A program made the position numbers and the translations under genes. Below the pieces are notes generated by a model. The model ran no database searches, was not told the origin of the DNA, and was given only the letters and a program-made list of their open reading frames with translations. From Escherichia phage vB_EcoM-Ro121c4YLVW, in the sequence record NC_052654.1: a DNA stretch of 64,000 bases; one strand, given 5' to 3'. This document shows, one piece after another, positions 1,757 through 43,971 of this stretch. Numbering within the stretch: the first letter of the stretch is position 1; every line of letters begins with the position of its first letter.

Positions 1757-1835
1757 TGGAGGCGGGAATCGGATTTGAACCGATGATCTCCAGCATATGA
1801 AACTGGCGAGGACGACCAGACTCCTCTATCCCGCT
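1757..1835 (-). tRNA. tRNA with anticodon CAU (Met or Ile2/lysidine)
   Basis: Hand fold: T-arm ATCGG-TTCAAAT-CCGAT, anticodon stem CCAGT/GCTGG, loop TTCATAT, CCA encoded; A1-C72 mismatch at acceptor end. Confidence 0.6.
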
Positions 1836-1841
1836 ATTATG

Positions 1842-1911
1842 TATCCCGTGCTGGATTCGAACCAGCATCACAATAAGCTGTGGAACTCTTATCCTGTAAG
1901 TCTAACGGGAA
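1842..1911 (-). tRNA. tRNA-like gene with non-canonical anticodon arm (4-bp stem CACA/TGTG with 6-nt loop); possible pseudo-tRNA
   Basis: Canonical T-arm GCTGG-TTCGAAT-CCAGC and 6-bp acceptor pairing, but no 5-bp stem / 7-nt loop anticodon arm can be drawn; about 70 nt. Confidence 0.35.
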
Positions 1912-1913
1912 AC

Positions 1914-1987
1914 TGGTTGTTTCGACAAGAATCGAACTTGTGTCTCACGATTATCAGTCGTGGGTTCTACCATTGAACTACGAAACA
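1914..1987 (-). tRNA. tRNA-Ile (anticodon GAU)
   Basis: Hand fold: acceptor TGTTTCG/CGAAACA, D-arm GTTC..GAAC, anticodon stem CACGA/TCGTG, loop CTGATAA, T-loop TTCGATT, CCA encoded. Confidence 0.7.
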
Positions 1988-1993
1988 TTTAAT

Positions 1994-2070
1994 TGGTCGG
2001 GACGGAGTGATTCGAACACTCGACCTCTCGCTCCCAAAGCGAGCGCACTACCAAGCTGTGCTACGTCCCG
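1994..2070 (-). tRNA. tRNA-Pro (anticodon UGG)
   Basis: Hand fold: acceptor CGGGACG/CGTCCCG, anticodon stem CTCGC/GCGAG, loop TTTGGGA, T-arm GAGTG-TTCGAAT-CACTC, CCA encoded. Confidence 0.7.
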
Positions 2071-2163
2071 TGATAACATTCTAAAGGTACACCGCAAAAG
2101 AAAGTGTTCGGCGGCTCCTCGTTTTTAACTTCACACTTAAGGTAGTGACTCACCTTTGTTATA

Positions 2164-2239
2164 TGGCTGGTCTGTCTGGATTTGAACCAAACCTACGACA
2201 GTCAAAGTGTCGTGTGCTACCGGACTACACTACAAACCA
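2164..2239 (-). tRNA. tRNA-Gln (anticodon UUG)
   Basis: Hand fold: acceptor TGGTTTG/CAGACCA, anticodon stem CGACA/TGTCG, loop CTTTGAC, T-loop TTCAAAT, CCA encoded, 76 nt. Confidence 0.65.
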
Positions 2240-2337
2240 ATAAATCATTTAATGAAGGGCAACCAGAAGAAGTGTGAGAGAAGGAGAAAACCATGAGTAA
2301 AAGAGAAAGTTTTCTGGCAACCCTTTATTAAATAATT

Positions 2338-2411
2338 TGGAGCGTTCTACGAGGATCGAACTCGTGCCGCCGACTTGGAAGGACGGAATGCTACCGCTAC
2401 ACCAAGAACGC
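2338..2411 (-). tRNA. tRNA-Gly (anticodon UCC)
   Basis: Hand fold: acceptor GCGTTCT/AGAACGC, T-arm ACGAG-TTCGATC-CTCGT, anticodon loop CTTCCAA (one T-T in stem), CCA encoded. Confidence 0.6.
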
Positions 2412-2422
2412 CATATATATTT

Positions 2423-2452
2423 ACTATACTACATTTTACTATTTGTTGTCAA
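2423..2452 (-). promoter_or_regulatory. sigma70-like promoter inside the tRNA cluster (TTGACA-N18-TATAGT on minus strand)
   Basis: Consensus -35 with near-consensus -10 read on minus strand, directly upstream of tRNA-Gly. Confidence 0.5.
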
Positions 2453-2725
2453 GACTTTTATTGATTGGGACAGTGACGAGTATCCCGTTGGGTGACTAGC
2501 CCTACGTTCGGTAAGCTAACTTAAAATAATACAAAACCAAAGTCAAATATTATTCTTCGTTGCTGTCGATGGGAGAGCCGCTTCTCATTTTGCCCCATCC
2601 AACCCTACTCCGGTCAAGTTTCGGGTGACTCTTTTTGTGATCAACACAATACTAAGAACACTGTCTTTCGAGCAGACCTTGTGCACAGGATACGACGATC
2701 AATCACAGTGCTCTTAATGTTGTGT
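2453..2725 (-). ncRNA. non-tRNA spacer inside tRNA operon; candidate stable small RNA(s)
   Basis: About 270 bp between tRNA-Thr and the internal promoter with no ORF and no T-loop motif; T4 carries non-tRNA stable RNAs in its tRNA region. Confidence 0.25.
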
Positions 2726-2800
2726 TGGTGCTCCCACACTGAATCGAACAGAGATCCACGGATTACAAAACCGTTGTAATAGCCATTATACTATAGGAGC
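2726..2800 (-). tRNA. tRNA-Thr (anticodon UGU)
   Basis: Hand fold: acceptor GCTCCTA/TGGGAGC (one G-U), anticodon stem ACGGT/TCCGT, loop TTTGTAA, T-loop TTCGATT, CCA encoded. Confidence 0.6.
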
Positions 2801-2806
2801 AATGCT

Positions 2807-2884
2807 GGGACTCGGCAGGATTCGATACCTGCAATTCCAGAAGCCTATTGGCGACTGGGGGGTTTACCTTAACTCTACAAGTCC
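2807..2884 (-). tRNA. tRNA-like gene with aberrant D/anticodon region (anticodon not assignable)
   Basis: Good acceptor pairing GGACTTG/CGAGTCC and T-arm GCAGG..CCTGC (8-nt loop TATCGAAT), but the central region (CCCCCC run) does not give a canonical anticodon arm; no CCA encoded. Confidence 0.3.
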
Positions 2885-2891
2885 ATAATTC

Positions 2892-2977
2892 TGGCGATGA
2901 GTATAGGATTCGAACCTATATTGTTCTTTCGAACACGGATTAACAGTCCGCCGCTTAAACCATTCAGCCAACTCATC
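2892..2977 (-). tRNA. type II (long variable arm) tRNA with anticodon GUU (Asn-decoding anticodon on a Tyr-like body)
   Basis: Hand fold: acceptor GATGAGT/ACTCATC, anticodon stem GCGGA/TCCGT, loop CTGTTAA, variable-arm hairpin GTTC-GAAA-GAAC, T-arm ATAGG-TTCGAAT-CCTAT, CCA encoded. Confidence 0.5.
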
Positions 2978-2983
2978 TTAATT

Positions 2984-3071
2984 TGGTGGTGAGTGATGGA
3001 GTCGAACCACCCGAATCGCAATGATAACAGATTTACAGTCTGCCCCGCTACCCCTACGGAATTAACTCACC
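2984..3071 (-). tRNA. tRNA-Tyr (anticodon GUA), type II
   Basis: Hand fold: acceptor GGTGAGT/ACTCACC, anticodon stem GCAGA/TCTGT, loop CTGTAAA, long variable arm, T-loop TTCGACT, CCA encoded. Confidence 0.6.
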
Positions 3072-3201
3072 TAAATACTAATATTTAAATTCTTTTTAAA
3101 ATAGCCAGTGTTCACACCACTAACTATGAGGTATCGGTAAAGTGGTTACCGCCACTTGCCGAAGATTTACTCTGCTAAAGTAAGCTACATTAAAAAGAAC
3201 T

Positions 3202-3287
3202 TGGCGGTAGATGTAGGACTCGAACCTACACGCCGTTTCCGACTACAGTTTAGCAAACTGTCGTGGCTACCATTTCACCAATCTACC
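3202..3287 (-). tRNA. tRNA-Ser (anticodon GCU), type II
   Basis: Hand fold: acceptor GGTAGAT/ATCTACC, anticodon stem ACAGT/ACTGT, loop TTGCTAA, long variable arm, T-arm TGTAGG-TTCGAGT-CCTACA, CCA encoded. Confidence 0.65.
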
Positions 3288-3292
3288 TAATC

Positions 3293-3383
3293 TGGCGGAA
3301 GGAGGGAGAGTCGAACTCCCAAGGCTCTTTCAAGCTCGGCGGTTTTCAAGACCGTTTTCGTCGCCACATCGATTTGCCCTTCC
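3293..3383 (-). tRNA. tRNA-Ser (anticodon UGA), type II
   Basis: Hand fold: acceptor GGAAGGG/TCCTTCC, anticodon stem CGGT/ACCG, loop CTTGAAA, long variable arm, T-arm GGGAG-TTCGACT-CTCCC, CCA encoded. Confidence 0.6.
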
Positions 3384-3617
3384 ATACTTATAATCTAACA
3401 TAAAATAATGTTTGTTGTCAATAGTTTTTTAAAACATTTTACCATGAATGGTGACTCCACCAACCCCCGTTCTCCACGAACGGTGCTCTTCGAGCATTTA
3501 TGTCTTCTAATATAACCGTGGCCTTTGTTTATAATGTCTGACATACTTGCCTCATTCTCTGCCACCATGATCAGTAGTGGGTTCAAATCACTTGAGCTAA
3601 TTCATGTTAAAATGTTC

Positions 3618-3692
3618 TGGTGTCTTTACAAGGAATCGAACCTTGACTAAGAGTTTAGAAGACTCCTGTGCTATCCATTACACCATAAAGAC
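3618..3692 (-). tRNA. tRNA-Arg (anticodon UCU)
   Basis: Hand fold: acceptor GTCTTTA/TAAAGAC, anticodon stem GGAGT/ACTCT, loop CTTCTAA, T-arm CAAGG-TTCGATT-CCTTG, CCA encoded. Confidence 0.7.
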
Positions 3693-3694
3693 TT

Positions 3695-3769
3695 TGGTGG
3701 CCCTGGCTGGTTTCGATCCAGCTACCTATCGGTTATGAGCCGACAGCTCTCCCATTGAGCTACAGGGCC
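3695..3769 (-). tRNA. tRNA with anticodon CAU (Met elongator or Ile2)
   Basis: Hand fold: acceptor GGCCCTG/CAGGGCC, D-arm GCTC-AATGGGAGA-GC, anticodon loop CTCATAA, T-arm GCTGG-ATCGAAA-CCAGC, CCA encoded. Confidence 0.65.
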
Positions 3770-7876: not shown

Positions 7877-8020
7877 ATGCATCATTCGGTTTGGTCGGAA
7901 CAAGAAGAGGACGAAGGTTACTTTATCTACCGAGAAGAAGAGGATTGGCCCGACACAAGTAATGATCTTTTACTTCCAGACACTAGTTTTTTCGAGGATA
8001 ACTTAAGAGAGGAGGATTAG
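7877..8020 (+). CDS. small acidic hypothetical protein (about 47 aa)
   Basis: ATG after GGAGAG; fills gap between genes. Confidence 0.3.
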   Translation: MHHSVWSEQEEDEGYFIYREEEDWPDTSNDLLLPDTSFFEDNLREED

Positions 8021-8026
8021 GAAACA

Positions 8027-8383
8027 ATGAGTGGTATTGAAAACAATATTTGTTACCAACCTCTTACCTGGATGGGTGAGGGTCATTATGCGCAACGTGT
8101 TATCGTCTGTGCTGCAAATAAGTATATTTTGAATAATGGTGAAGAGTTAATTATTCCTTGTGTTCGACATGCAAATCCTGTACTATATGCACAGTTAAAC
8201 GTGTTGAAAGAAGCAGGTGTAATCAACAAAACTTTGTGCACACCAGATAATCAAGGCTTTATCGATCAGTATTACAATTGGTGGAGTCGTGCGGATGCTT
8301 ACATCATCGCGGAAAATGCTGACCAGATCGACCATGAGCGTAATGGTCACGACCATGAATTATTTAGCGAGGGATTATACTAA
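8027..8383 (+). CDS. hypothetical protein
   Basis: ORF track; SD GGAGGA. Confidence 0.5.
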   Translation: MSGIENNICYQPLTWMGEGHYAQRVIVCAANKYILNNGEELIIPCVRHANPVLYAQLNVLKEAGVINKTLCTPDNQGFIDQYYNWWSRADAYIIAENADQIDHERNGHDHELFSEGLY

Positions 8384-8934
8384 TGTTTATTACAAGCGAT
8401 TTGCATTTTATGCATAAACGTATTCGAGAGTTTGCTCCTGAATATCGTCCGTGGGAAGATATGGACCACATGACAGAAGCCTTGATCGAAGCATGGAACA
8501 AATGTGCTACTACTCCTGGTGTTAAGATGTGGCATTTGGGCGACTTCTGTTTCGGAACTGAAGAAGATACCCGTAAAATTGCTTCTCGTCTCCAAGGAGA
8601 TATCACCTACTGTGTTGGGAACCATGACTACAGCAAACACCGAGAAGTGCTTGCAGAGTATGGTGAAGTGGTGTATTATGACGAAGTGAAATATCAGAAG
8701 CTGTTCTTCGTCTTAAGTCATTACCCTATGGCCTCCTGGAATAAACAAGGTCGTGGATCAATCATGCTACACGGGCATTCCCACGGATCTTTCCCTGATG
8801 AAGCTTATGGTAAAATGTTAGATGTGGGTTGGGATGCACACGGAAAAATCTTGCATTTTGATGAGATAATTTCTATGATGAGTAAACGAGATATCGTGAC
8901 TGTAGACCATCACAAAATAATCAAAGGAGAGTAA
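8383..8934 (+). CDS. calcineurin-like metallophosphoesterase
   Basis: Motifs SDLH, GDFxFG, GNHD, GHSHG (metallophosphatase signature); ATGA overlap with upstream gene. Confidence 0.65.
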   Translation: MFITSDLHFMHKRIREFAPEYRPWEDMDHMTEALIEAWNKCATTPGVKMWHLGDFCFGTEEDTRKIASRLQGDITYCVGNHDYSKHREVLAEYGEVVYYDEVKYQKLFFVLSHYPMASWNKQGRGSIMLHGHSHGSFPDEAYGKMLDVGWDAHGKILHFDEIISMMSKRDIVTVDHHKIIKGE

Positions 8935-8935
8935 T

Positions 8936-9868
8936 GTGACTAAATTTAATTGCGACGATTTGGTTGAAAAAGGTTTAGTTCATAAGAAAACATATAAAGA
9001 AGGAGAGTATTCTGGTCTATCTGTTCTTAAGTATAAGAACAAAGTTTTCTGGGATAACTTATGGAGCATTGATTCTCGTCTTCTAGAATGTCGCGGAATC
9101 GTTGTTGATGCTGATGACAATGTTGTTATTTGGCCTTTCACTAAGATTTTTAATCGTTTTGAGAATGGCACAGATCTACCATTGGATGAACTTGTAGATG
9201 TGGTTCGTAAAGTAAATGGTTTTATGGCCTCTGTAGGTGTATATAAAGGTCAACTTATTGTATCGACAACAGGAAGCCTTGAATCAGATTTTGCAAGTAT
9301 TGCAAAGAATCGTATTGTTTCAGAGTGTGATGACATAGAACATTTCATCAAATGGACAGAGAGTGCAAAAGCAACTTTCCTTTTTGAAATCTGTGATCCT
9401 TCTGATCCGCATATTGTCGAAGAAGAACCAGGTGCATACTTAATTGGTGCCAGAATTCAAAATCCTGATGGGACAAGTTTTATGTTACCTGAAGGTGCTC
9501 TTGATGGAATTGCTTCTGTCACCAAATTTAAGCGTCCTGAAGTTCATCCAATGGTTAAGTTTTCAGATGTTGTTGAAATGTCTAAACATTGTAAACACGA
9601 AGGGTTTGTAGTTCGTGAAACAAACTATCCGTTCAACTTACTTTTAAAAATTAAATCACCACACTATCTTACTAAGAAGTTTCTTATGCGCGGTGGAGAT
9701 AAAAAGTGGGATCTGATTTGGGATAATCCAAAAAATGCCAAACAAATGGTTGACGAAGAATATTACGCTTTGTTAGAATGGATTCGAAATAATTTTACGA
9801 AGACTCAATGGGCTGCTTTAAATCAGCAAGAGCGACGTGAAAAAATCGAAAACTTTTTTGGAGGATAA
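8936..9868 (+). CDS. ligase-family nucleotidyltransferase, RNA-ligase-like (motif I KVNG, motif V EGFVVRE)
   Basis: GTG start; lysine nucleotidyltransferase motifs with Asn in place of Asp in motif I; sits between phosphoesterase and polynucleotide kinase. Confidence 0.45.
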   Translation: MTKFNCDDLVEKGLVHKKTYKEGEYSGLSVLKYKNKVFWDNLWSIDSRLLECRGIVVDADDNVVIWPFTKIFNRFENGTDLPLDELVDVVRKVNGFMASVGVYKGQLIVSTTGSLESDFASIAKNRIVSECDDIEHFIKWTESAKATFLFEICDPSDPHIVEEEPGAYLIGARIQNPDGTSFMLPEGALDGIASVTKFKRPEVHPMVKFSDVVEMSKHCKHEGFVVRETNYPFNLLLKIKSPHYLTKKFLMRGGDKKWDLIWDNPKNAKQMVDEEYYALLEWIRNNFTKTQWAALNQQERREKIENFFGG

Positions 9869-10273
9869 ATGAAACAACTTATCATTTTACGTGGCGTTTC
9901 AGGTGCTGGTAAATCTACAGTAGCAGAAATTATTTCTGAAGGTTATTGGCCTATCTGTGAGGCAGATCAATATCATTACACAGAGAGTGGTGTTTACGAT
10001 TGGAAGCCAGAAAATGTAGGTAAAGCACACGCATGGTGTCAGGGTATTGTTCGTGATGCTATGGCATCTAATCTTAACAAGATTATTGTTTCTAATACTT
10101 CAACCACAGAGAAAGAACTTAAACCTTATCTAGCTCTTGCTGAAGAGTTTGGTTATCAAGTTATCTCTTTAATTGTTGAAAATAGGCACGGTAATGATTC
10201 AATTCACGAGGTTCCACAATATATCCGTGATCAGCAAGAGAAACGTCTTCGTGGTTCACTTAAACTTCAATAA
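9869..10273 (+). CDS. P-loop polynucleotide-kinase-like protein
   Basis: Walker A GVSGAGKST at N-terminus, size and layout like the T4 Pnk kinase domain. Confidence 0.55.
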   Translation: MKQLIILRGVSGAGKSTVAEIISEGYWPICEADQYHYTESGVYDWKPENVGKAHAWCQGIVRDAMASNLNKIIVSNTSTTEKELKPYLALAEEFGYQVISLIVENRHGNDSIHEVPQYIRDQQEKRLRGSLKLQ

Positions 10274-10282
10274 GGAGAAATA

Positions 10283-10609
10283 ATGCAGATTTATACAGAT
10301 GATCGTAAATATGAGACAATTTTAGATGAAGATACTGGACGAATTACCGTTCTCCGTCACGGTGAAGAGTGGCGTGATGAAACGGGAGACAATTATATCT
10401 TGTCTCTGATTCATCTTATTGAACAAATGCGTGATGATTACGCTGAACTGCATTATGAAAATGAGGCTAATAAAGTAAAATTTGAAAATGAATTAGAAGA
10501 GAAAGAATCCGAAATGGTATATCTAAAAGAAGAGATCTCCCGTTTGGAGGAAGAGATTGATGCTCTTCAAGAAGAGATTTACGAACTCAACAACGAACTG
10601 AACGCTTAA
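10283..10609 (+). CDS. hypothetical coiled-coil protein
   Basis: ORF track; E/L-rich heptads. Confidence 0.45.
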   Translation: MQIYTDDRKYETILDEDTGRITVLRHGEEWRDETGDNYILSLIHLIEQMRDDYAELHYENEANKVKFENELEEKESEMVYLKEEISRLEEEIDALQEEIYELNNELNA

Positions 10610-10618
10610 GGAGGGATT

Positions 10619-10810
10619 ATGAAAAAAGATATCGTTGTTGTTGGTTGGCTGACTTGCCCTTGTGGTAGTAATGACATAACTGTAAACACAGAGGGTGATA
10701 AAAATTATTTATTCTACGGGGATAAAATCACTTGCAATACCTGCGGACGTGTTGGTATTATAGAAACCGATGATTGTTGTGCTTTTGAATCTTGGGATGA
10801 AGAAGAATGA
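10619..10810 (+). CDS. small zinc-ribbon protein (CPCG...CNTCG)
   Basis: ORF track; two CxxC pairs. Confidence 0.45.
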   Translation: MKKDIVVVGWLTCPCGSNDITVNTEGDKNYLFYGDKITCNTCGRVGIIETDDCCAFESWDEEE

Positions 10811-11028
10811 GTACTGCATTTTATGTTCGTAGCGGAGACGAGGATTTTCTAGCTACTTTTGATGACGGTGATCTTGAAGATATGTATGAAGATATGCTTG
10901 ACTATGCCAAAGGGCAAGGTTTCACAAGCATTGATTATATGTTGGCAACATCTACAACGTTACTCGACGCAGATTTGGATGAAGTGTGTAACAGATTGAA
11001 AATTTCAGTTTTTAAATGGGAGGACTAA
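10807..11028 (+). CDS. hypothetical acidic protein
   Basis: ORF track. Confidence 0.4.
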   Translation: MSTAFYVRSGDEDFLATFDDGDLEDMYEDMLDYAKGQGFTSIDYMLATSTTLLDADLDEVCNRLKISVFKWED

Positions 11029-12143
11029 TGCAACAAACAAATCAAACGCTGTATGGTAAAGATTCAAAAGGAAAACTTAAACAGTGGACAGTATATACAG
11101 ATGGTGCAGTTGTTACTGTAGCTCATGGAAGAGTAGGTGGAAAGATCACAGAAAAATCTTATACAGCAGAAGCAAAAAACATTGGTCGTTCCAATGAAAC
11201 AACACCGGAAGAACAAGCTGAACTTGAAGCTTTTGCCAAATGGACAAAACAGTTAAAGAATGGCTATTATAAAACAAAAGAAGAAGCTGAAAACCATGTT
11301 CCTTCCACACCAATGAAATGCCAGGATTATAAAGATTATCCTGAAAGGGTTGTGTTCCCTGGTTATGCACAATACAAACTGAACGGGTTACGTTCTATGA
11401 TTAACATGAAAGGGGAGTGTTTATCAAAAGCTGGGGAAGTGTATAACCTGCCACCTCATTGGAAAGGTATTCCAAACTTTATTAGTGAAGTTGTTGGTCA
11501 TCCTCTTGATGGTGAAGTGTTTGCTGGGTTAGGTGTCCTTAGTCTGCAACAAATTAACAGTGCTTGGAAGAAGCATAATGCAAATACACCTTTGCTGAAT
11601 TATTACGTATACGATATTCCAGTTCCAGGTCTACCGTTTGAAAAACGTGTTGATGCTCTTGCTGCTCTTAAGGCAGTAGTTGAAGATTATGGTCTTGACG
11701 AGCTTATTTGTGTAGTTCATACAGAGTATATTGAAAACCAAGAGCAGTTTGACGCTTTCTATGAAAAAGCTTTACTTGAGAAAGCTGAAGGTGTAGTATA
11801 TCGTAATGCTCACGGAGTTTACGAATTTGATAAACGTTCTTATGACGTTATTAAACGTAAGCCTCGCCACACCCTTGAAGTTAAAGTAACAAATTCAAAA
11901 AGCGATAAAAATGGCGATGGAGTGTTGACAGGTGAGATGGAAAATGGTAAAGTAGTCGAATTCTTAATGCGTAAAGATGCTCATGAGACTATCAATTATC
12001 GTAAAGCAGAGAATGCTTCTACCTTGATTAATCAGTTCGTTGAAATAGAGTATGAAGAATTTTCAGATGAAGGTATTCCAACAAAACCTGTTGGTGTTCG
12101 TATTCGAGAAATGATCCTAGGCACTTGGGAACCAGCAGAGTAA
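11016..12143 (+). CDS. ATP-dependent nucleic-acid ligase-like nucleotidyltransferase (motif I KLNGLR, III LDGEV, V EGVVYR) with N-terminal WGR-like domain
   Basis: Covalent nucleotidyltransferase motifs in correct order; motif I Asp replaced by Asn. Confidence 0.5.
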   Translation: MGGLMQQTNQTLYGKDSKGKLKQWTVYTDGAVVTVAHGRVGGKITEKSYTAEAKNIGRSNETTPEEQAELEAFAKWTKQLKNGYYKTKEEAENHVPSTPMKCQDYKDYPERVVFPGYAQYKLNGLRSMINMKGECLSKAGEVYNLPPHWKGIPNFISEVVGHPLDGEVFAGLGVLSLQQINSAWKKHNANTPLLNYYVYDIPVPGLPFEKRVDALAALKAVVEDYGLDELICVVHTEYIENQEQFDAFYEKALLEKAEGVVYRNAHGVYEFDKRSYDVIKRKPRHTLEVKVTNSKSDKNGDGVLTGEMENGKVVEFLMRKDAHETINYRKAENASTLINQFVEIEYEEFSDEGIPTKPVGVRIREMILGTWEPAE

Positions 12144-12152
12144 GGAGGAAAA

Positions 12153-12347
12153 ATGTTCTTAGCCATTTTAATCGTTTTCAGTGTACTTTCTTTTTATTGT
12201 ATGAATGCTTCGGAAAACTTTCCTAAGAATTCAAAGAAAAGAACCGTATGTGTTGTGATTGATTCATGTATGTCTGGAGTTGGGTATGCGGTAGTTTCTT
12301 GTTTCTTAGCTTATCATTGTTCAAAATACCTGGAGGCATTTTTATGA
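12153..12347 (+). CDS. small membrane protein
   Basis: ORF track; SD AGGAGG; two hydrophobic helices. Confidence 0.45.
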   Translation: MFLAILIVFSVLSFYCMNASENFPKNSKKRTVCVVIDSCMSGVGYAVVSCFLAYHCSKYLEAFL

Positions 12348-12535: not shown

Positions 12536-13261
12536 ATGATCGAGAATTTTTTTAAAGATATTAAGTTCGATACTGAATTTTTCAAAAATGCAGCGAAGCA
12601 CGTGATTGATTGGAATGCTAAAGCACGAGGTGGTGAACAACCTGAATTCACTCAAGAGCTATTTATGTCCCAAATCGGATTCGTTCGTGAAGAGCTTAAA
12701 GAGTATGAAACAGCCGCGAAAGTAAACGATCATGTAGAACTCTTGGATGCAGCAGCGGATATTTTTGTAGTATCCAGTTATCTGACCTACATGTTCTTTG
12801 GTGAAGAACATACGATGAATTTCTTGGACTATGCTGTAGGCGATGTTTTTACTCCAACTGTGTATACTGATTTTGATGCTTTGGAACAAACATTTACAGA
12901 GCCAGTTCAAATGGCACTAATGGCTGCTGGTATTATGCGTATGTCTCGTGACACTCTAATCCGTTCAAAATATCCAGAAAAGAAAGTTATTAAAGAGGTA
13001 TTGAAAAGTAATGATTCCAAGTATCCAACTAAACAACAGTTGCTGAAAACTTGGAAAACTTCGGATATCGATTCAGCCATTGCACAAGAATGCGCTGCAA
13101 TTGAAGAACGAAATGCCAATCGTCCAGAAGGGGCATACACTGGTGTTCATGCTGTTTATAATGAAAAACAGAAAGTGTATGTGTTCTTTGATGATAAAGG
13201 TAAGATCATGAAACCATCGACCTTTGTCAAACCTAATATTGCAGGTATTATTAACAAGTAA
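12536..13261 (+). CDS. MazG-like nucleotide pyrophosphohydrolase (tentative)
   Basis: All-alpha profile with E-x-x-E...D acidic motif (EELKEYE...DAAADI). Confidence 0.35.
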   Translation: MIENFFKDIKFDTEFFKNAAKHVIDWNAKARGGEQPEFTQELFMSQIGFVREELKEYETAAKVNDHVELLDAAADIFVVSSYLTYMFFGEEHTMNFLDYAVGDVFTPTVYTDFDALEQTFTEPVQMALMAAGIMRMSRDTLIRSKYPEKKVIKEVLKSNDSKYPTKQQLLKTWKTSDIDSAIAQECAAIEERNANRPEGAYTGVHAVYNEKQKVYVFFDDKGKIMKPSTFVKPNIAGIINK

Positions 13262-13317: not shown

Positions 13318-14196
13318 ATGTTTGTAAAATCTTTTAAATCCGCTCTGCCTATGGTTGTTGGTGACAATGCTTCTGTAGCATCCCTTAACAGCATTACAGA
13401 TATTCCTCTGGAATTTGTAACAGCAGAAGGCTCCCAGTCACACACTATCGGTCTTGTTCGTTTCGAAGATGACTCTAAATTTGTAAAAGAGTTTTCAGAT
13501 CTTGAACTGCTTAATGTAGGTCAATCTGTGAAGAAGGTAGATAAAAAGAAAGTTAAACGTATTCTGAATGAACGTCTAGAAGAAATGCGTCAGGACATGG
13601 AGAGCGAAGGTAAAGAGTTTTATGTCGATAAAGAAGTAGTCAAAGCAATGAAGGAAGATATTGAATTTGCACTATTGCCTGAAACAGAACCTGAAGATTT
13701 CTTTAACTATGTTGTCTTGGATAAAACTACGAATCTTCTTTATGTTCTTAATGGAAGTAAAAAGGTTGCAGAAGAGATTACTTCTTTCCTCCGTTCCGTT
13801 CTGGGGACTTTCCCTTCGGTAGGTTTTAGTGTGCACGAAGAAGCTATTGTAAAAGGTTTTGGTGAATTGCTGGAGAATCACGAAGCAGATCGTATTACTC
13901 TCGGAAATTATATCAAAATGGAGGATAGCGAGGGCGTTGTTGTTTGGAGTAAAGAATCCCTATACGAGTCTAAAGCTGTCGAACTAAAAGAAGATGGTAA
14001 AGATGTTGTTGCAATCGGTCTTGAATATGACGGTGTTGTAGATTTCGTAGTGGATAAAGAGTTTAAACTTTCTAAACTACGTTTTCCGAAATATTTTGCA
14101 GACGAAGAAGGCAGTATTGAAGCTTCAGTCCTTCTGTGCTTCAATGAGATTCGAGGTCTGATGGAAGATTTAACCAAAGCAACAATCCTTAAATAA
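13318..14196 (+). CDS. rdgC: RdgC-like recombination-associated protein
   Basis: Length about 290 aa and internal block VVLDKTTNLLYVLNGSKKVAEEITSFLRSVLG resembling E. coli RdgC (recalled, not aligned). Confidence 0.45.
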   Translation: MFVKSFKSALPMVVGDNASVASLNSITDIPLEFVTAEGSQSHTIGLVRFEDDSKFVKEFSDLELLNVGQSVKKVDKKKVKRILNERLEEMRQDMESEGKEFYVDKEVVKAMKEDIEFALLPETEPEDFFNYVVLDKTTNLLYVLNGSKKVAEEITSFLRSVLGTFPSVGFSVHEEAIVKGFGELLENHEADRITLGNYIKMEDSEGVVVWSKESLYESKAVELKEDGKDVVAIGLEYDGVVDFVVDKEFKLSKLRFPKYFADEEGSIEASVLLCFNEIRGLMEDLTKATILK

Positions 14197-14229: not shown

Positions 14230-14258
14230 GCCTACCTACTTAATGAGGTAGGCTTTTT
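14230..14258 (+). terminator. hairpin CCTACCT..AGGTAGG + TTTTT (terminator/attenuator in 5' leader)
   Basis: 7-bp inverted repeat followed by T-run, then SD of next gene. Confidence 0.4.
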
Positions 14259-33144: not shown

Positions 33145-33474
33145 ATGGAAATTACTACAGAACAAGCCCTTATCGACGAGGGTCGTAAAATCTTAGAAAA
33201 GTATTTAGGGGAGATTCATAAAACCCCTGGCTATTTGGGTTGGAGAATTGTTGAAGCTGTAGATTTCCTTCCTCGTAACAGTAAAAGCGTCGAAATGCGA
33301 TCTCTTTTCTTATTAGTAAAGGTGGACGGGGATACACCTTTTAAAGATGCCGCAGAACATATTGAAAAAGTTGAAGAGAAAGCTTATGCAGAATTTGCCG
33401 ATCTTGTTTTAGAACAAGAGATTGAAGGAAAGGTGAATATTTTTATTTTCTTAGATTTTGAGGAGGATAAGTGA
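33145..33474 (+). CDS. hypothetical protein
   Basis: ORF track. Confidence 0.45.
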   Translation: MEITTEQALIDEGRKILEKYLGEIHKTPGYLGWRIVEAVDFLPRNSKSVEMRSLFLLVKVDGDTPFKDAAEHIEKVEEKAYAEFADLVLEQEIEGKVNIFIFLDFEEDK

Positions 33475-34214
33475 TCATACACAGAGAAATTACTGTTAAA
33501 AGCGATCAAGATCTTTTTATAATTGGAGATCTACACGGTTGTTATAATTTGTATGAAAAAGGAAAGGCAAAGTTAGGTATCCGAGATACAGATGTGGTTG
33601 TATCTCTAGGAGATCTTACTGACCGTGGAAAGCAAAACTTTCGTTGTGTTTTAGAATTTACTCGTAAACACAATCGCTACGCTATTCGTGGCAATCATGA
33701 AGACATGATGATTAAAGGTATGCTGGAAGGAGATCGTAGCTACTACGAGTGTTGGTATCAAAATGGAGGATATACGGTCTTTGAAGAATGTGGTGAAGAA
33801 GGAGCTACAGCCTTAGCAATGATGACAGAAGATTTACCTGTTGTTCTCATTGTTAACTACAGAGGCATGAAACTTGCGTTTATTCATGGTGGGTATCCAT
33901 CTTCTTTGGAATATCTCCCTGTAACAGATATTCCAGAATACATTTCGAAGATGACAAAAACACAGGAAAACCGTTTTGCTGAAGCACTTATGTGGGACAG
34001 AGATATGGTAGACTGTGCTAAAGAGGGAATGAAACTTCCTGTTGTGATGGGTGTGGATTATGTGTTTCATGGACACTCTTATGTAAAAACACCTATTATC
34101 AATGCGAATCGTGTTTATATGGATACTGGATCTGTGTTCAATAATAACTTAACATTTGCTTATTTCGATATGGACGGTGGTCTTCAATTTTATTCAACTC
34201 TTGAGGAGGATTAA
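33471..34214 (+). CDS. PPP-family Ser/Thr protein phosphatase (lambda-phosphatase-like)
   Basis: GDLHG, GDLTDRG, GNHE metallophosphatase motifs. Confidence 0.7.
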   Translation: MIIHREITVKSDQDLFIIGDLHGCYNLYEKGKAKLGIRDTDVVVSLGDLTDRGKQNFRCVLEFTRKHNRYAIRGNHEDMMIKGMLEGDRSYYECWYQNGGYTVFEECGEEGATALAMMTEDLPVVLIVNYRGMKLAFIHGGYPSSLEYLPVTDIPEYISKMTKTQENRFAEALMWDRDMVDCAKEGMKLPVVMGVDYVFHGHSYVKTPIINANRVYMDTGSVFNNNLTFAYFDMDGGLQFYSTLEED

Positions 34215-39666: not shown

Positions 39667-40152
39667 ATGTTTCAAGTAAATGTCAATGTGCATAATAGTT
39701 ACTCTGATTGTGAAACGTGTGGCTATAATTCATCTAATGTTATTCGTATTAGTGGCGATTTAGGAGAAGCTTCTTTTGGAGAAGAAGCAAGTTGCTTTAG
39801 TGGTATGGATGCAGAATGGAATGATATTGCACATTGGTTAGTGAGCAAACTAAAAGAAAAAGAGAAACCATTTCCTACTCTGCTTGATCGTTCTCTTGTG
39901 GAAGATGCAGGTAAAGCATATGCAGACTATGCGTATGCAGACGGGAAATATTTGGAAGATGATAAGGCTAACCATTTGCTTTATGTTTACTATGAAGCTG
40001 AATCTGCCTACGATAATTATTACAGCATGTCTAACATCCTACGTCTGTTTGCAGAGTTTGATATTTATTTCGAAGTAGAATTTTCAGAAGATGATACTTA
40101 CGAGTACAATTCTTATGATCCATTTGAGGAGGAAGAATGCCAAGACGAGTGA
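39667..40152 (+). CDS. hypothetical acidic protein
   Basis: ORF track. Confidence 0.45.
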   Translation: MFQVNVNVHNSYSDCETCGYNSSNVIRISGDLGEASFGEEASCFSGMDAEWNDIAHWLVSKLKEKEKPFPTLLDRSLVEDAGKAYADYAYADGKYLEDDKANHLLYVYYEAESAYDNYYSMSNILRLFAEFDIYFEVEFSEDDTYEYNSYDPFEEEECQDE

Positions 40153-40952
40153 TTTTTGTAAGCGGTGCAGGTTTAAGTGCAGACAGTGGGATTCGAACAT
40201 TTAGAACAGACACAGATAGTGGTCGTGCTTTATGGGAAGAATATGATTTAGAAGAGGTCTGCGATATTGGAGCTTTCCAAGCAGGTTATCGTGTTAGAAC
40301 ATCTCCAGATCTTCCAGTGGTCGGTGGTGTAGACGAGAACGGTATGGATTTGTATGCCAAAACACACGAATTTTATAACAAAAGACGTGTTGAGCTTAAA
40401 GATGTACAACCTAATGCTGCACATATTCAAATAGCAAAGTGGTTTAAGGAATATCCTAACCAAATAGTAAACTTGACAACAAACGTTGATGATCTACTAG
40501 AGCGAGCAGGTGTAGACAGAGATTCTGTTATTCACGTACACGGATATCTTCCTGAAGTAGTTTACCGTATGCATCCCGGAGATTACAAAACACTGGTAGA
40601 TATTGGTTACAATAGTATAAACATAGATGATTATAACTGGGTGAAGCCTAATGTTGTATTTTTTGGTGAGGCTGCACCTTTGTATGCAGATATGGCTCAC
40701 TTGTTCGATACTTTGACCATGCAAGATTTGGTTGTAGTAGTAGGATGTTCAAACCAAGTTATCAATTTTAATTGGGAATTATTTCCTGCACTTAGTATGG
40801 GTACAAAAATGGTTGTAGTTAACCCTGGAGTTAATTACGAAGAAACACTTCTCTATGAAGATCGTGGAGTTTTTGTTTACCGAGAAAAAGCTGCAACAGC
40901 CTTCAGCAATGAAGGTTTCATTAAAATGGTCGAAGACCACTTAAACAAATAA
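40137..40952 (+). CDS. Sir2-family (sirtuin-like) NAD-dependent protein
   Basis: N-terminal FVSGAGLSADSGIRTFR matches sirtuin NAD-binding signature; VHVHGYL catalytic His region. Confidence 0.65.
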   Translation: MPRRVIFVSGAGLSADSGIRTFRTDTDSGRALWEEYDLEEVCDIGAFQAGYRVRTSPDLPVVGGVDENGMDLYAKTHEFYNKRRVELKDVQPNAAHIQIAKWFKEYPNQIVNLTTNVDDLLERAGVDRDSVIHVHGYLPEVVYRMHPGDYKTLVDIGYNSINIDDYNWVKPNVVFFGEAAPLYADMAHLFDTLTMQDLVVVVGCSNQVINFNWELFPALSMGTKMVVVNPGVNYEETLLYEDRGVFVYREKAATAFSNEGFIKMVEDHLNK

Positions 40953-43335: not shown

Positions 43336-43781
43336 GATTGAGTTCCTTTTTGTTTTTCAATAGCTGCACGAATTTCTGCTAAAGGTTCTGCTACCAAGTC
43401 TTCAACTTCTTGGATTTGTTCATTCATCACATCACGAACCATTTGAATACGCTCTTCAAGGGAAACAGCAAGTTCATCTGCATAAGCCATATTAAGAACG
43501 TGGTAGAAATTTTCTTGTGCACTTAAAGCACCAGATAACAAATAATCCTGATCTTCCTCTGGTAAAAGCATGTGTTGCTCATATTCAGCAAAAGTGTTTT
43601 TGTTAATCTCAAGCAAAGCACCCATCATAACATCATACTGATAATCTTTATGACCAGGGTTGTTTAAAATAACATCTTCAAAAATATTAAGAAGAATCTT
43701 AGTAACAAAAGCATTGTTTTCGGCACCTTCCATCTGACGGATTACCGTGATTACTTCTTTTTCTTTAGCGTTTTGGCTCAT
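43332..43781 (-). CDS. hypothetical protein
   Basis: ORF track. Confidence 0.45.
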   Translation of the reverse strand: MSQNAKEKEVITVIRQMEGAENNAFVTKILLNIFEDVILNNPGHKDYQYDVMMGALLEINKNTFAEYEQHMLLPEEDQDYLLSGALSAQENFYHVLNMAYADELAVSLEERIQMVRDVMNEQIQEVEDLVAEPLAEIRAAIEKQKGTQS

Positions 43782-43971
43782 AGTGTTTCTCCTCTGATTC
43801 TATTTGGATATAACCTGTGGTTTTGCACGGGTTACACTCGTAAATTTGACCTACGTCCGCCATAACATATCCTGCACCACCACAATAGGGGCAAGGCATA
43901 GGAGGACAAGGTATGGACGTAGTGATTGTTACGACATTATCAATTTCCAACATTTTCGCCATTACTACCAT
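43765..43971 (-). CDS. small zinc-ribbon protein
   Basis: ORF track; CPYCGG...CNPCK. Confidence 0.4.
   Translation of the reverse strand: MVVMAKMLEIDNVVTITTSIPCPPMPCPYCGGAGYVMADVGQIYECNPCKTTGYIQIESEEKHYEPKR

Follow-up and report, generated by a model that had tools for sequence, protein, structure and literature searches.

A linked phosphoesterase, RNA ligase and kinase, probably an RNA end-repair module, beside an African swine fever virus-type DNA ligase in an Escherichia phage

Escherichia phage vB_EcoM-Ro121c4YLVW (sequence record NC_052654.1) carries four plus-strand genes between positions 8383 and 12143 of the stretch of DNA analyzed here, which is 64,000 nucleotides (nt) long and is called the window throughout. 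An original prediction, made from the sequence alone, had read the four as an RNA-repair-like cassette, and all four open reading frames (ORFs) were found where it had placed them, with the start of the last revised to 11028. The first three genes (8383–10273) probably encode a three-enzyme module that heals and seals RNA ends, to judge from sequence comparisons and structure models. The same kinds of evidence identify the product of the fourth as an African swine fever virus (ASFV)-type DNA ligase, and not as a second RNA ligase. The predicted products, with their lengths in amino acids (aa), are as follows.

8383–8934, plus strand: binuclear metallophosphoesterase, COG4186 / aq_1665 type, 183 aa (Pfam Metallophos, PHROG 547)
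8936–9868, plus strand: ATP-dependent RNA ligase, Rnl1/Trl1 clade, 310 aa, GTG start (Pfam RNA_lig_T4_1, PHROG 562)
9869–10273, plus strand: stand-alone P-loop kinase, 134 aa (Pfam AAA_33, PHROG 2071, PHROG 505)
11028–12143, plus strand: ATP-dependent DNA ligase, ASFV type, 371 aa (Pfam DNA_ligase_A_M, PHROG 114)

Comparison with phage records used window positions 8000–12200 (4.2 kb), which are 100% identical to Escherichia phage ESCO13 (Phapecoctavirus, Stephanstirmvirinae) and share at least 99% identity with 27 phage records. RefSeq names the four genes, in order, phosphoesterase, “RNA ligase and tail fiber protein attachment catalyst,” ATPase, and ATP-dependent DNA ligase; the third (9869–10273) is named “putative polynucleotide kinase” in the record of phage Schickermooser. 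The four genes are already-annotated sequence of a known phage and belong to an RNA-repair system of a known kind, and neither the trio nor the DNA ligase upsets present understanding.

The genes at 8383–8934, 8936–9868, and 9869–10273 are translationally coupled. Spacings between genes are −1, +1, and 0 nt, with the phosphoesterase start overlapping the upstream stop codon as TAATG and the kinase ATG following directly on the ligase stop codon, and every gene has its own Shine-Dalgarno sequence. Linkage was examined in a sample of 80 viral loci that encode an Rnl-like relative at 40–87% identity, whose ORFs were searched with the window proteins over a 6-kb range. Both a phosphoesterase and a kinase lie within 6 kb of the Rnl-like gene in 60 of the 80 loci; the remainder have the kinase only (12), the phosphoesterase only (5), or neither (3, two of them at contig ends). 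The phosphoesterase gene adjoins the RNA-ligase gene in most related loci. Gene order varies by lineage: phosphoesterase–ligase–kinase and kinase–ligase–phosphoesterase both occur, and locus L016 has an inverted pair. In about 11 metagenomic viral loci, kinase and Rnl1-like ligase form a single protein of 421–432 aa with the kinase at the N-terminal end; Pfam confirms one of these proteins as AAA_33 followed by RNA_lig_T4_1.

L052, 5569–6834, and L056, 5536–6834: kinase–ligase fusions; also in L053, L057, L060, and L062–L067

Because the linkage outlasts rearrangement and a gene fusion exists, we regard joint action of the three proteins as strongly supported by these data. The grouping of metallophosphoesterase, Rnl1-like ligase, and P-loop kinase into one cassette is thus upheld by translational coupling, by linkage in shuffled orders, by the fusions, and by the fold and profile matches given below. 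Membership of the fourth gene is not upheld: three small ORFs intervene between it and the kinase, and only 30 of the 80 loci have a DNA-ligase gene within 6 kb. Since it is placed differently with respect to the trio from phage to phage, we treat the DNA ligase as a neighbor and not as part of the cassette.

The phosphoesterase carries the full calcineurin-type motif set that had been read from its sequence. All five metal-binding motifs (DxH, GD, GNH(D/E), H, and GHxH) are present, as D6-x-H8, G53-D54, G79-N80-H81, H113, and G131-H132-x-H134; across 21 homologues there is no variation at D6, H8, D54, N80, H81, H113, H132, or H134. The protein scores 24.9 bits against Pfam Metallophos (PF00149; cut-off 21.5). 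Its family profile matches PDB entry 1xm7 (aq_1665, a protein of unknown function) at E = 9e-23, and also matches GpdQ, MJ0936, and YfcE. By analogy, we propose that this is a 3′-end healing enzyme, acting as a 2′,3′-cyclic phosphodiesterase and/or a 2′/3′-phosphatase, because it is linked to a ligase and a kinase and because other binuclear metallophosphoesterases are able to hydrolyze RNA 2′,3′-cyclic phosphates (PMC2190708; PMC1920235). A second, unrelated metallophosphoesterase is encoded at 33471–34214 (plus strand); it is annotated as a NinI-like Ser/Thr phosphatase and reaches only E = 0.23 against the profile of the cassette phosphoesterase.

Sequence and model evidence together assign the product of 8936–9868 to the ATP-dependent RNA ligases of the Rnl1/Trl1 clade. 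It matches Pfam RNA_lig_T4_1 (PF09511) at E = 5.9e-15 (56.2 bits vs. a cut-off of 28.3), and its family profile reaches T4 Rnl1 at E = 3e-9 with all motifs aligned. With motifs named after PMC6379707, these are motif I, K92-V-N94-G95; motif III, E151; motif IV, E222-G223 (EGFVVR); and motif V, K238-I-K240 (LLKIKS). The earlier designation of KVNG as motif I therefore stands, and EGFVVRE, which had been labeled motif V, is nucleotidyltransferase motif IV. Both single-sequence and profile searches place K92 on the T4 Rnl1 nucleophile K99, and R53, K70, K92, E151, E222-G223, K238, and K240 align with R54, K75, K99, E159, E227-G228, K240, and K242 of the T4 enzyme. These residues are invariant, as are N94 and G95; F72, the counterpart of T4 F77, is nearly so. 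The invariance of all catalytic residues extends across 22 sequences, down to 50% identity.

The AlphaFold model of this ligase has a predicted local distance difference test score (pLDDT) of 91, and its ten best Foldseek matches in the PDB are fungal Trl1 ligase domains and T4 Rnl1 (E = 3e-13 to 1e-11, TM 0.60–0.69). The C-terminal domain is short and helical (about 65 aa). Orthology with T4 RnlA was considered and ruled out: the phage protein is 64 residues shorter, has a helical-bundle C-terminus, and departs from RnlA at T112 and in its score against the RnlA equivalog model (both treated below). The Rnl-like gene is present in 678 phage genome records, including those of the rV5-like, phi92-like, PAK_P1-like, and Vibrio groups, and our literature search found no paper tying Phapecoctavirus, phAPEC8, rV5, or phi92 to this RNA ligase or kinase.

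The third protein had been described as a P-loop kinase resembling the kinase domain of T4 Pnk, a description that both family and profile matches bear out. It matches Pfam AAA_33 at E = 3.5e-10 and PHROG 505, “polynucleotide kinase,” at 1.2e-7. Its P-loop reads G9-x-x-G12-x-G14-K15-S16-T17; G9, G12, G14, K15, T17, and D33 are invariant in 21 sequences, and D33 falls opposite the first Asp in the “RDD” motif of Pnkp1, which makes it the counterpart of the T4 Pnk general base D35. As a single query against the PDB the sequence returned P-loop noise only, and a family profile was needed. Built from 21 homologues, that profile matches five polynucleotide or tRNA kinases: Pnkp1 (7e-8), the tRNA kinase PSTK (3e-7), T4 Pnk (1e-6), mammalian PNKP (2e-6), and the kinase domain of Clostridium thermocellum Pnkp (CthPnkp; 5e-6). 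Gluconate, adenylate, and shikimate kinases reach 1e-4 or worse, below the polynucleotide and tRNA kinases over comparable lengths, and the top match of the profile, adenylate kinase 9, spans the P-loop only. These similarities lead us to propose that the protein is a 5′-OH polynucleotide kinase.

Phage RNA repair directed against tRNA-cutting host defenses is well known from T4. In the pathway we propose here, nucleases such as anticodon nucleases would cut RNA to leave a 2′,3′-cyclic phosphate and a 5′-OH, the metallophosphoesterase would open or remove the cyclic phosphate to give a ligatable 3′-OH, and the small P-loop kinase would phosphorylate the 5′-OH. The Rnl1/Trl1-clade ligase would then reseal the break, becoming adenylylated on K92 and transferring AMP to the 5′-phosphate before attack by the 3′-OH. 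The likeliest substrates would be host or phage tRNAs cut by host defense nucleases. A counter-defense role for the trio is plausible by analogy: phage Rnl1 and Rnl2 ligases, together with polynucleotide kinase and a phosphoesterase that is occasionally calcineurin-like, form a recognized counter-defense theme (PMC7824862).

Like the T4 enzymes Pnkp and Rnl1, which act against the anticodon nuclease PrrC, the trio would combine a 5′ kinase, a 3′ end-healing activity, and an ATP-dependent ligase of the Rnl1 family. The phage ligase has the N-terminal subdomain residues (T4 R54, K75, F77) and motifs I, III, IV, and V of T4 Rnl1, and the phage kinase has the P-loop and catalytic Asp of T4 Pnk. 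The two systems differ in that 3′ healing in T4 is the work of a haloacid dehalogenase (HAD; DxDxT) phosphatase fused to the kinase, whereas the phage studied here encodes a separate binuclear metallophosphoesterase and a lone 134-aa kinase. Its ligase, at 310 aa vs. 374 for T4 Rnl1, is without the tRNA-specificity domain and has KxNG in place of the T4 sequence KEDG and Thr in place of Lys119. The Pnkp-Hen1 system of C. thermocellum offers the same trio of enzyme classes, with a binuclear metallophosphoesterase as the 2′,3′ end healer, and the kinase profile matches both CthPnkp and Pnkp1, as given above. There, however, the three activities reside in one polypeptide instead of three genes; the phage phosphoesterase belongs to the aq_1665/COG4186 branch, and the phage ligase is of the Rnl1/Trl1 kind. 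The genome annotation, as read over 150,000 of the 151,194 bases of Schickermooser, names no Hen1 methyltransferase.

Several observations weigh against RNA end repair by the trio. The kinase has no Arg at D33+3, the position of the phosphate-binding R38 of T4 Pnk, and its lid Arg (R106 in “ENRHG,” found when a counterpart of T4 R126 was sought) is present here and replaced in many homologues. In the RNA ligase, the invariant T112 occupies the position of the essential motif Ia residue K119 of T4 Rnl1. The C-terminal tRNA-specificity domain of T4 Rnl1 (residues 255–374) has no equivalent, the alignment ending at T4 residue 250, and the score against the NCBIfam equivalog model for T4 RnlA (TIGR02308) is 25.3 bits, far under the cut-off of 242. 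The phosphoesterase falls in the uncharacterized aq_1665/COG4186 branch, and its profile matches neither the CthPnkp phosphatase nor lambda phosphatase at E ≤ 0.1. No phosphoesterase homologue was found within 6 kb at the loci with kinase–ligase fusions; as for an alternative phosphoesterase there, conserved ORFs upstream, of 229 and 236 aa, match nothing in Pfam or PHROG. A literature search found no measured activity for any of the four proteins or for members of their subfamilies.

The setting of the cassette near phage tRNA genes has to be weighed in the same way. A cluster of ten tRNA genes sits 4.6 kb upstream:

1757–3769, minus strand: 10 tRNA genes, for Met (two), Ile, Pro, Gln, Gly, Thr, Asn, Ser, and Arg (ARAGORN and GenBank annotation)

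These tRNAs could be substrates of the cassette or could represent a parallel counter-measure, and the cluster fits a theme of translation protection. We give it little weight because, of 60 related loci, just 14 have tRNA genes within 6 kb and a further 2 have a transfer-messenger RNA (tmRNA), which is a weak enrichment at best. Among the loci with kinase–ligase fusions, ARAGORN calls permuted tmRNA genes, with tag peptides ending in ALAA, about 5 kb downstream of the fusion genes (L056, 12177–12579; L065, 11211–11607). Some tRNA calls near the cassette in related phage loci are odd (L016, 270–367; L039, 9183–9255; L033, 11576–11651; L080, 10734–10806): one has a 4-base anticodon (atcc), one the anticodon tta, which reads the stop codon UAA, and two the amber-suppressor-like anticodon cta, called “Pyl.”

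The structural matches also raise a more specific reading, in which the ligase would be the viral equivalent of eukaryotic tRNA ligases of the Trl1 type and not of T4 Rnl1; on balance we consider this unlikely. The ligase domain of fungal Trl1 (PDB 6n67, 6n0t, 9qw7) is the best or joint-best structural match of the phage protein, and the two share motif I KxNG, motif IV EGFV(I/V)R, and motif III E-x-C-D...H-I, which are absent in T4 Rnl1. The invariant phage residue H159 aligns to Trl1 His227, one holder of the putative 2′-phosphate, and N94 aligns to Asn150. Anchored on the shared “YL,” K248 may fall on Trl1 Arg334, where the Trl1 residues assumed past L331 are consistent with the numbering of PMC6379707. 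R252 is one residue out of register with Trl1 Arg337 in a comparison that uses the same assumed residues, so these two basic residues after motif V come close to Arg334 and Arg337 but do not match them cleanly. On the other side, Trl1 is a fusion of ligase, kinase, and 2H phosphodiesterase that needs a 2′-phosphate on the 3′ end, and the C-terminal domains differ. A PDB search with the RNA-ligase family profile gave no Trl1 match at E ≤ 1. Alignments to Trl1 segments were obtained through two artificial chimeric queries, for which the E-values are meaningless; T4 Rnl1 scored 39 bits vs. 7–13 bits for the Trl1 segments, so that overall similarity appears to lean toward T4 Rnl1, although only the T4 segment took in the N-terminal subdomain. 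Neither the phage nor the 80 related loci yielded a Tpt1/KptA homologue.

A Trl1-like pathway is nevertheless conceivable in a phage, because a single active-site change in a metallophosphoesterase can switch its product from a 2′-OH, the end suited to T4 Rnl1, to a 2′-phosphate, the end suited to yeast Trl1 (PMC1920235); the H189D mutant of CthPnkp stops at the 2′-phosphate, 3′-OH stage. The phage metallophosphoesterase would likewise have to halt at 2′-phosphate, 3′-OH, the ligase would recognize the 2′-phosphate of the 3′ end through N94, H159, and K248 or R252, and host KptA would strip the 2′-phosphate from the junction. If this were true, E. coli KptA, a Tpt1 homologue, would gain a natural substrate, none being known to have been established for it.

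Two further explanations would do without RNA repair. The phosphoesterase and kinase might instead heal DNA ends, that is, 3′-phosphate and 5′-OH nicks made by host nucleases, and feed the DNA ligase, with the Rnl1-like protein incidental. Both T4 Pnkp and mammalian PNKP can act in this manner, and the latter, a DNA-repair enzyme, is among the matches of the kinase profile. Genes for the DNA ligase, MazG, RdgC, and exonucleases share one plus-strand block with the trio, and the 30 loci with a DNA ligase within 6 kb may be counted in favor as well. Yet the constant partner of the phosphoesterase and kinase is the RNA ligase and not the DNA ligase, which is absent from the flanks in 50 of the 80 loci and is variably placed in the others, and it is to the RNA ligase that the kinase has been fused. 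We think that healing of DNA ends is improbable as the function of these genes.

The other explanation has the phosphoesterase degrading cyclic nucleotide alarm signals and the Rnl1-like protein serving mainly as a tail-fiber attachment factor like T4 gp63. An anti-signaling role has been suggested for calcineurin-like phosphodiesterases of phages (PMC7824862), and the closest characterized structural relatives of the phosphoesterase include phosphodiesterases such as GpdQ and MJ0936. The public label of the ligase names tail-fiber attachment, but it is inherited from T4 by family name only. Because the catalytic residues are invariant and K-x-N-G is kept in every one of 120 homologues, selection appears to act on ligase catalysis, and the three-way linkage and the kinase fusion would be left unexplained; we judge this combination of roles distinctly unlikely. 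RNA end healing and sealing by the trio is the reading we prefer.

Whether the fourth gene encodes the DNA ligase of the phage or a second RNA ligase had been left as a question, which fold, profile, and single-homologue evidence now settle in favor of a DNA ligase. Its start had been put at 11016; it most likely lies at 11028, given a TAATG stop/start overlap, a GGAGGA sequence at 11019–11024, and the starts of homologues and of the GenBank annotation. The predicted protein has a DNA-binding domain of alpha/beta type at its N-terminus, together with adenylation and oligonucleotide-binding (OB) domains, and matches Pfam DNA_ligase_A_M at E = 6e-9. KLNG, LDGEV, and EGVVYR are all present, and the conserved motif residues are K117 (motif I, K117-L-N119-G120), D161-G-E163 (motif III), Y195-D196 (motif IIIa), E254-G255 (motif IV), and K276-R-K278 (motif V). 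Here too the labels given to the first two motifs hold, and EGVVYR is motif IV, the true motif V being DVIKRKP. The nucleotidyltransferase fold is present in the models of both ligases, and the K-x-N-G lysines of both occupy the motif I position.

The DNA-ligase model (pLDDT 92) has beta strands and, after them, a long helix at residues 60–77. Its top Foldseek matches are complexes of the ASFV ligase, AsfvLIG, with DNA (6imn, 6iml, 6imk; E = 4e-24, TMq 0.78, about 415 columns, near full length). Lig E, which is without the extra N-terminal domain, reaches TMq 0.58, and every further significant match is also a DNA ligase. The family profile agrees, with AsfvLIG as best PDB match (E = 2.2e-24) and DNA ligases making up all 27 matches; the aligned stretch opens at residue 74 of AsfvLIG, which is within the N-terminal domain (residues 1–120). 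AsfvLIG (PDB 6imj, 6imk, 6iml, 6imn) and the phage enzyme share the three domains, motif I K-x-N-G, and a conserved “GKNxGxxNxTT...QA” segment that corresponds to the AsfvLIG loop and helix contacting DNA. Among the AsfvLIG residues at the nick site, N153 corresponds to phage N119 and Leu211 to the invariant L173, and L402-Q403 is replaced by T352-K353 in the OB domain. The two proteins are only about 21% identical and differ in length (371 aa vs. 419 aa). The nearest predicted viral structures are those of phage ligases and of ligases from pithovirus-like, Solivirus, and abalone asfa-like viruses. The N-terminal domain (11028–11330), homologous to that of AsfvLIG, is matched by no Pfam-A model, and its family seems to be without a public profile.

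To look for paralogues, we used the annotation of 150,000 of the 151,194 bases of Schickermooser, which is 99.9% identical to the phage studied here, and searched all ORFs with four family hidden Markov models. No second DNA or RNA ligase was found in those bases, so we take 11028–12143 to encode the only DNA ligase of the phage. Presumably, as its sequence relationships suggest, the enzyme closes nicks when phage DNA is replicated, recombined, or repaired. A 65-aa ORF labeled “DNA ligase” in the RefSeq record of Schickermooser (window 43765–43962, minus strand) is a mislabel: it is Cys-rich (CPPIPCPYC...CNPC) and has no ligase homology.

Both ligases do have Asn where an Asp was expected in motif I (KVNG and KLNG), as the original prediction pointed out, but the substitution is not unusual. 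Among 120 RNA-ligase homologues all have K-x-N-G, and among 120 DNA-ligase homologues 104 have K-x-N-G and 4 have KLDG, with 12 unmatched by the search pattern. For fungal Trl1, motif I is stated as KxNG, and Asn150 contacts the water shell of the catalytic metal and a sulfate thought to mimic the RNA 2′-phosphate (PMC6379707). AsfvLIG, which is active in nick sealing, has K151-R-N153-G, with N153 in place of human LIG1 Asp570; N153 sits at the nick in the structure, and mutants containing N153D are less active (PMC6344480). From these counts and precedents we conclude that Asn is a family trait, the normal motif I residue of both enzymes, with no sign of inactivation or of a change of substrate class. 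The coexistence of K-x-N-G with KLDG further shows N and D to be natural alternatives in DNA-ligase motif I. That this Asn should make 11016–12143 a second RNA ligase, or an inactive one, is an idea for which the KLNG sequence alone would speak. It is highly improbable in view of the three-domain model and its closeness to AsfvLIG, the exclusively DNA-ligase matches in the PDB, the activity of AsfvLIG with the same Asn, the four family members with KLDG at that position, and the standing of the gene as sole DNA-ligase homologue in the scanned part of Schickermooser.

Around these genes lie further features of the same strand.

8027–8383, plus strand: PHROG 839 ORF, 118 aa (E = 4e-47), translationally coupled to the phosphoesterase
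10283–11028, plus strand: three small ORFs between kinase and DNA ligase, encoding a 108-aa coiled-coil, a 63-aa Cys-rich, and a 73-aa acidic protein
14230–14253, plus strand: terminator-like hairpin after rdgC, with a terminator annotated at the equivalent Schickermooser position

Searches of Pfam and NCBIfam gave no match for the 118-aa ORF and no family beyond PHROG 839. Its homologues among the 80 loci are restricted to the closest relatives and locus L070, and it is not a conserved member of the RNA-repair module. The three small ORFs are likewise restricted to close relatives among these loci. Downstream of the DNA ligase, in the same transcription unit, are genes for a MazG-like nucleotide pyrophosphohydrolase (12536–13261) and an RdgC-like recombination-associated protein (13318–14196), a pair that recurs beside the DNA ligase in many relatives. 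The hairpin probably marks the end of the long plus-strand transcription unit that holds the cassette. Elsewhere in the genome are a Sir2-family gene (40137–40952, plus strand) and, outside the window, genes for DUF1768 (NADAR-like) and phosphoribosyltransferase (PRTase) proteins (Schickermooser gp170 and gp209), which hint at NAD/ADP-ribose metabolism, a subject tied in the literature to RNA repair and counter-defense. Two records named “Campylobacter phage B15” and “C14” are 99.7–99.9% identical in this region to the coliphage described here, which suggests host misassignment or contamination in the deposits.

The cassette brings widespread and apparently biochemically unstudied enzyme subfamilies within reach in a tractable coliphage. 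It gives the aq_1665/COG4186 phosphoesterase family its first candidate function, and it offers what may be a stand-alone minimal polynucleotide kinase and an Rnl1-like ligase with Trl1-like active-site features. For the DNA ligase, the structural paper on the ASFV enzyme and a 2020 review termed its N-terminal domain and N153 “unique.” The link between ASFV and phage ligases is not new in principle, since in an older phylogeny the ASFV ligase had already grouped with enzymes of bacteria and phages (PMC2806865). The present comparison indicates that these two features, the N-terminal DNA-binding domain and the motif I Asn, are common to a large phage family, and therefore that a safe bacterial-virus model of an ASFV drug target is available.

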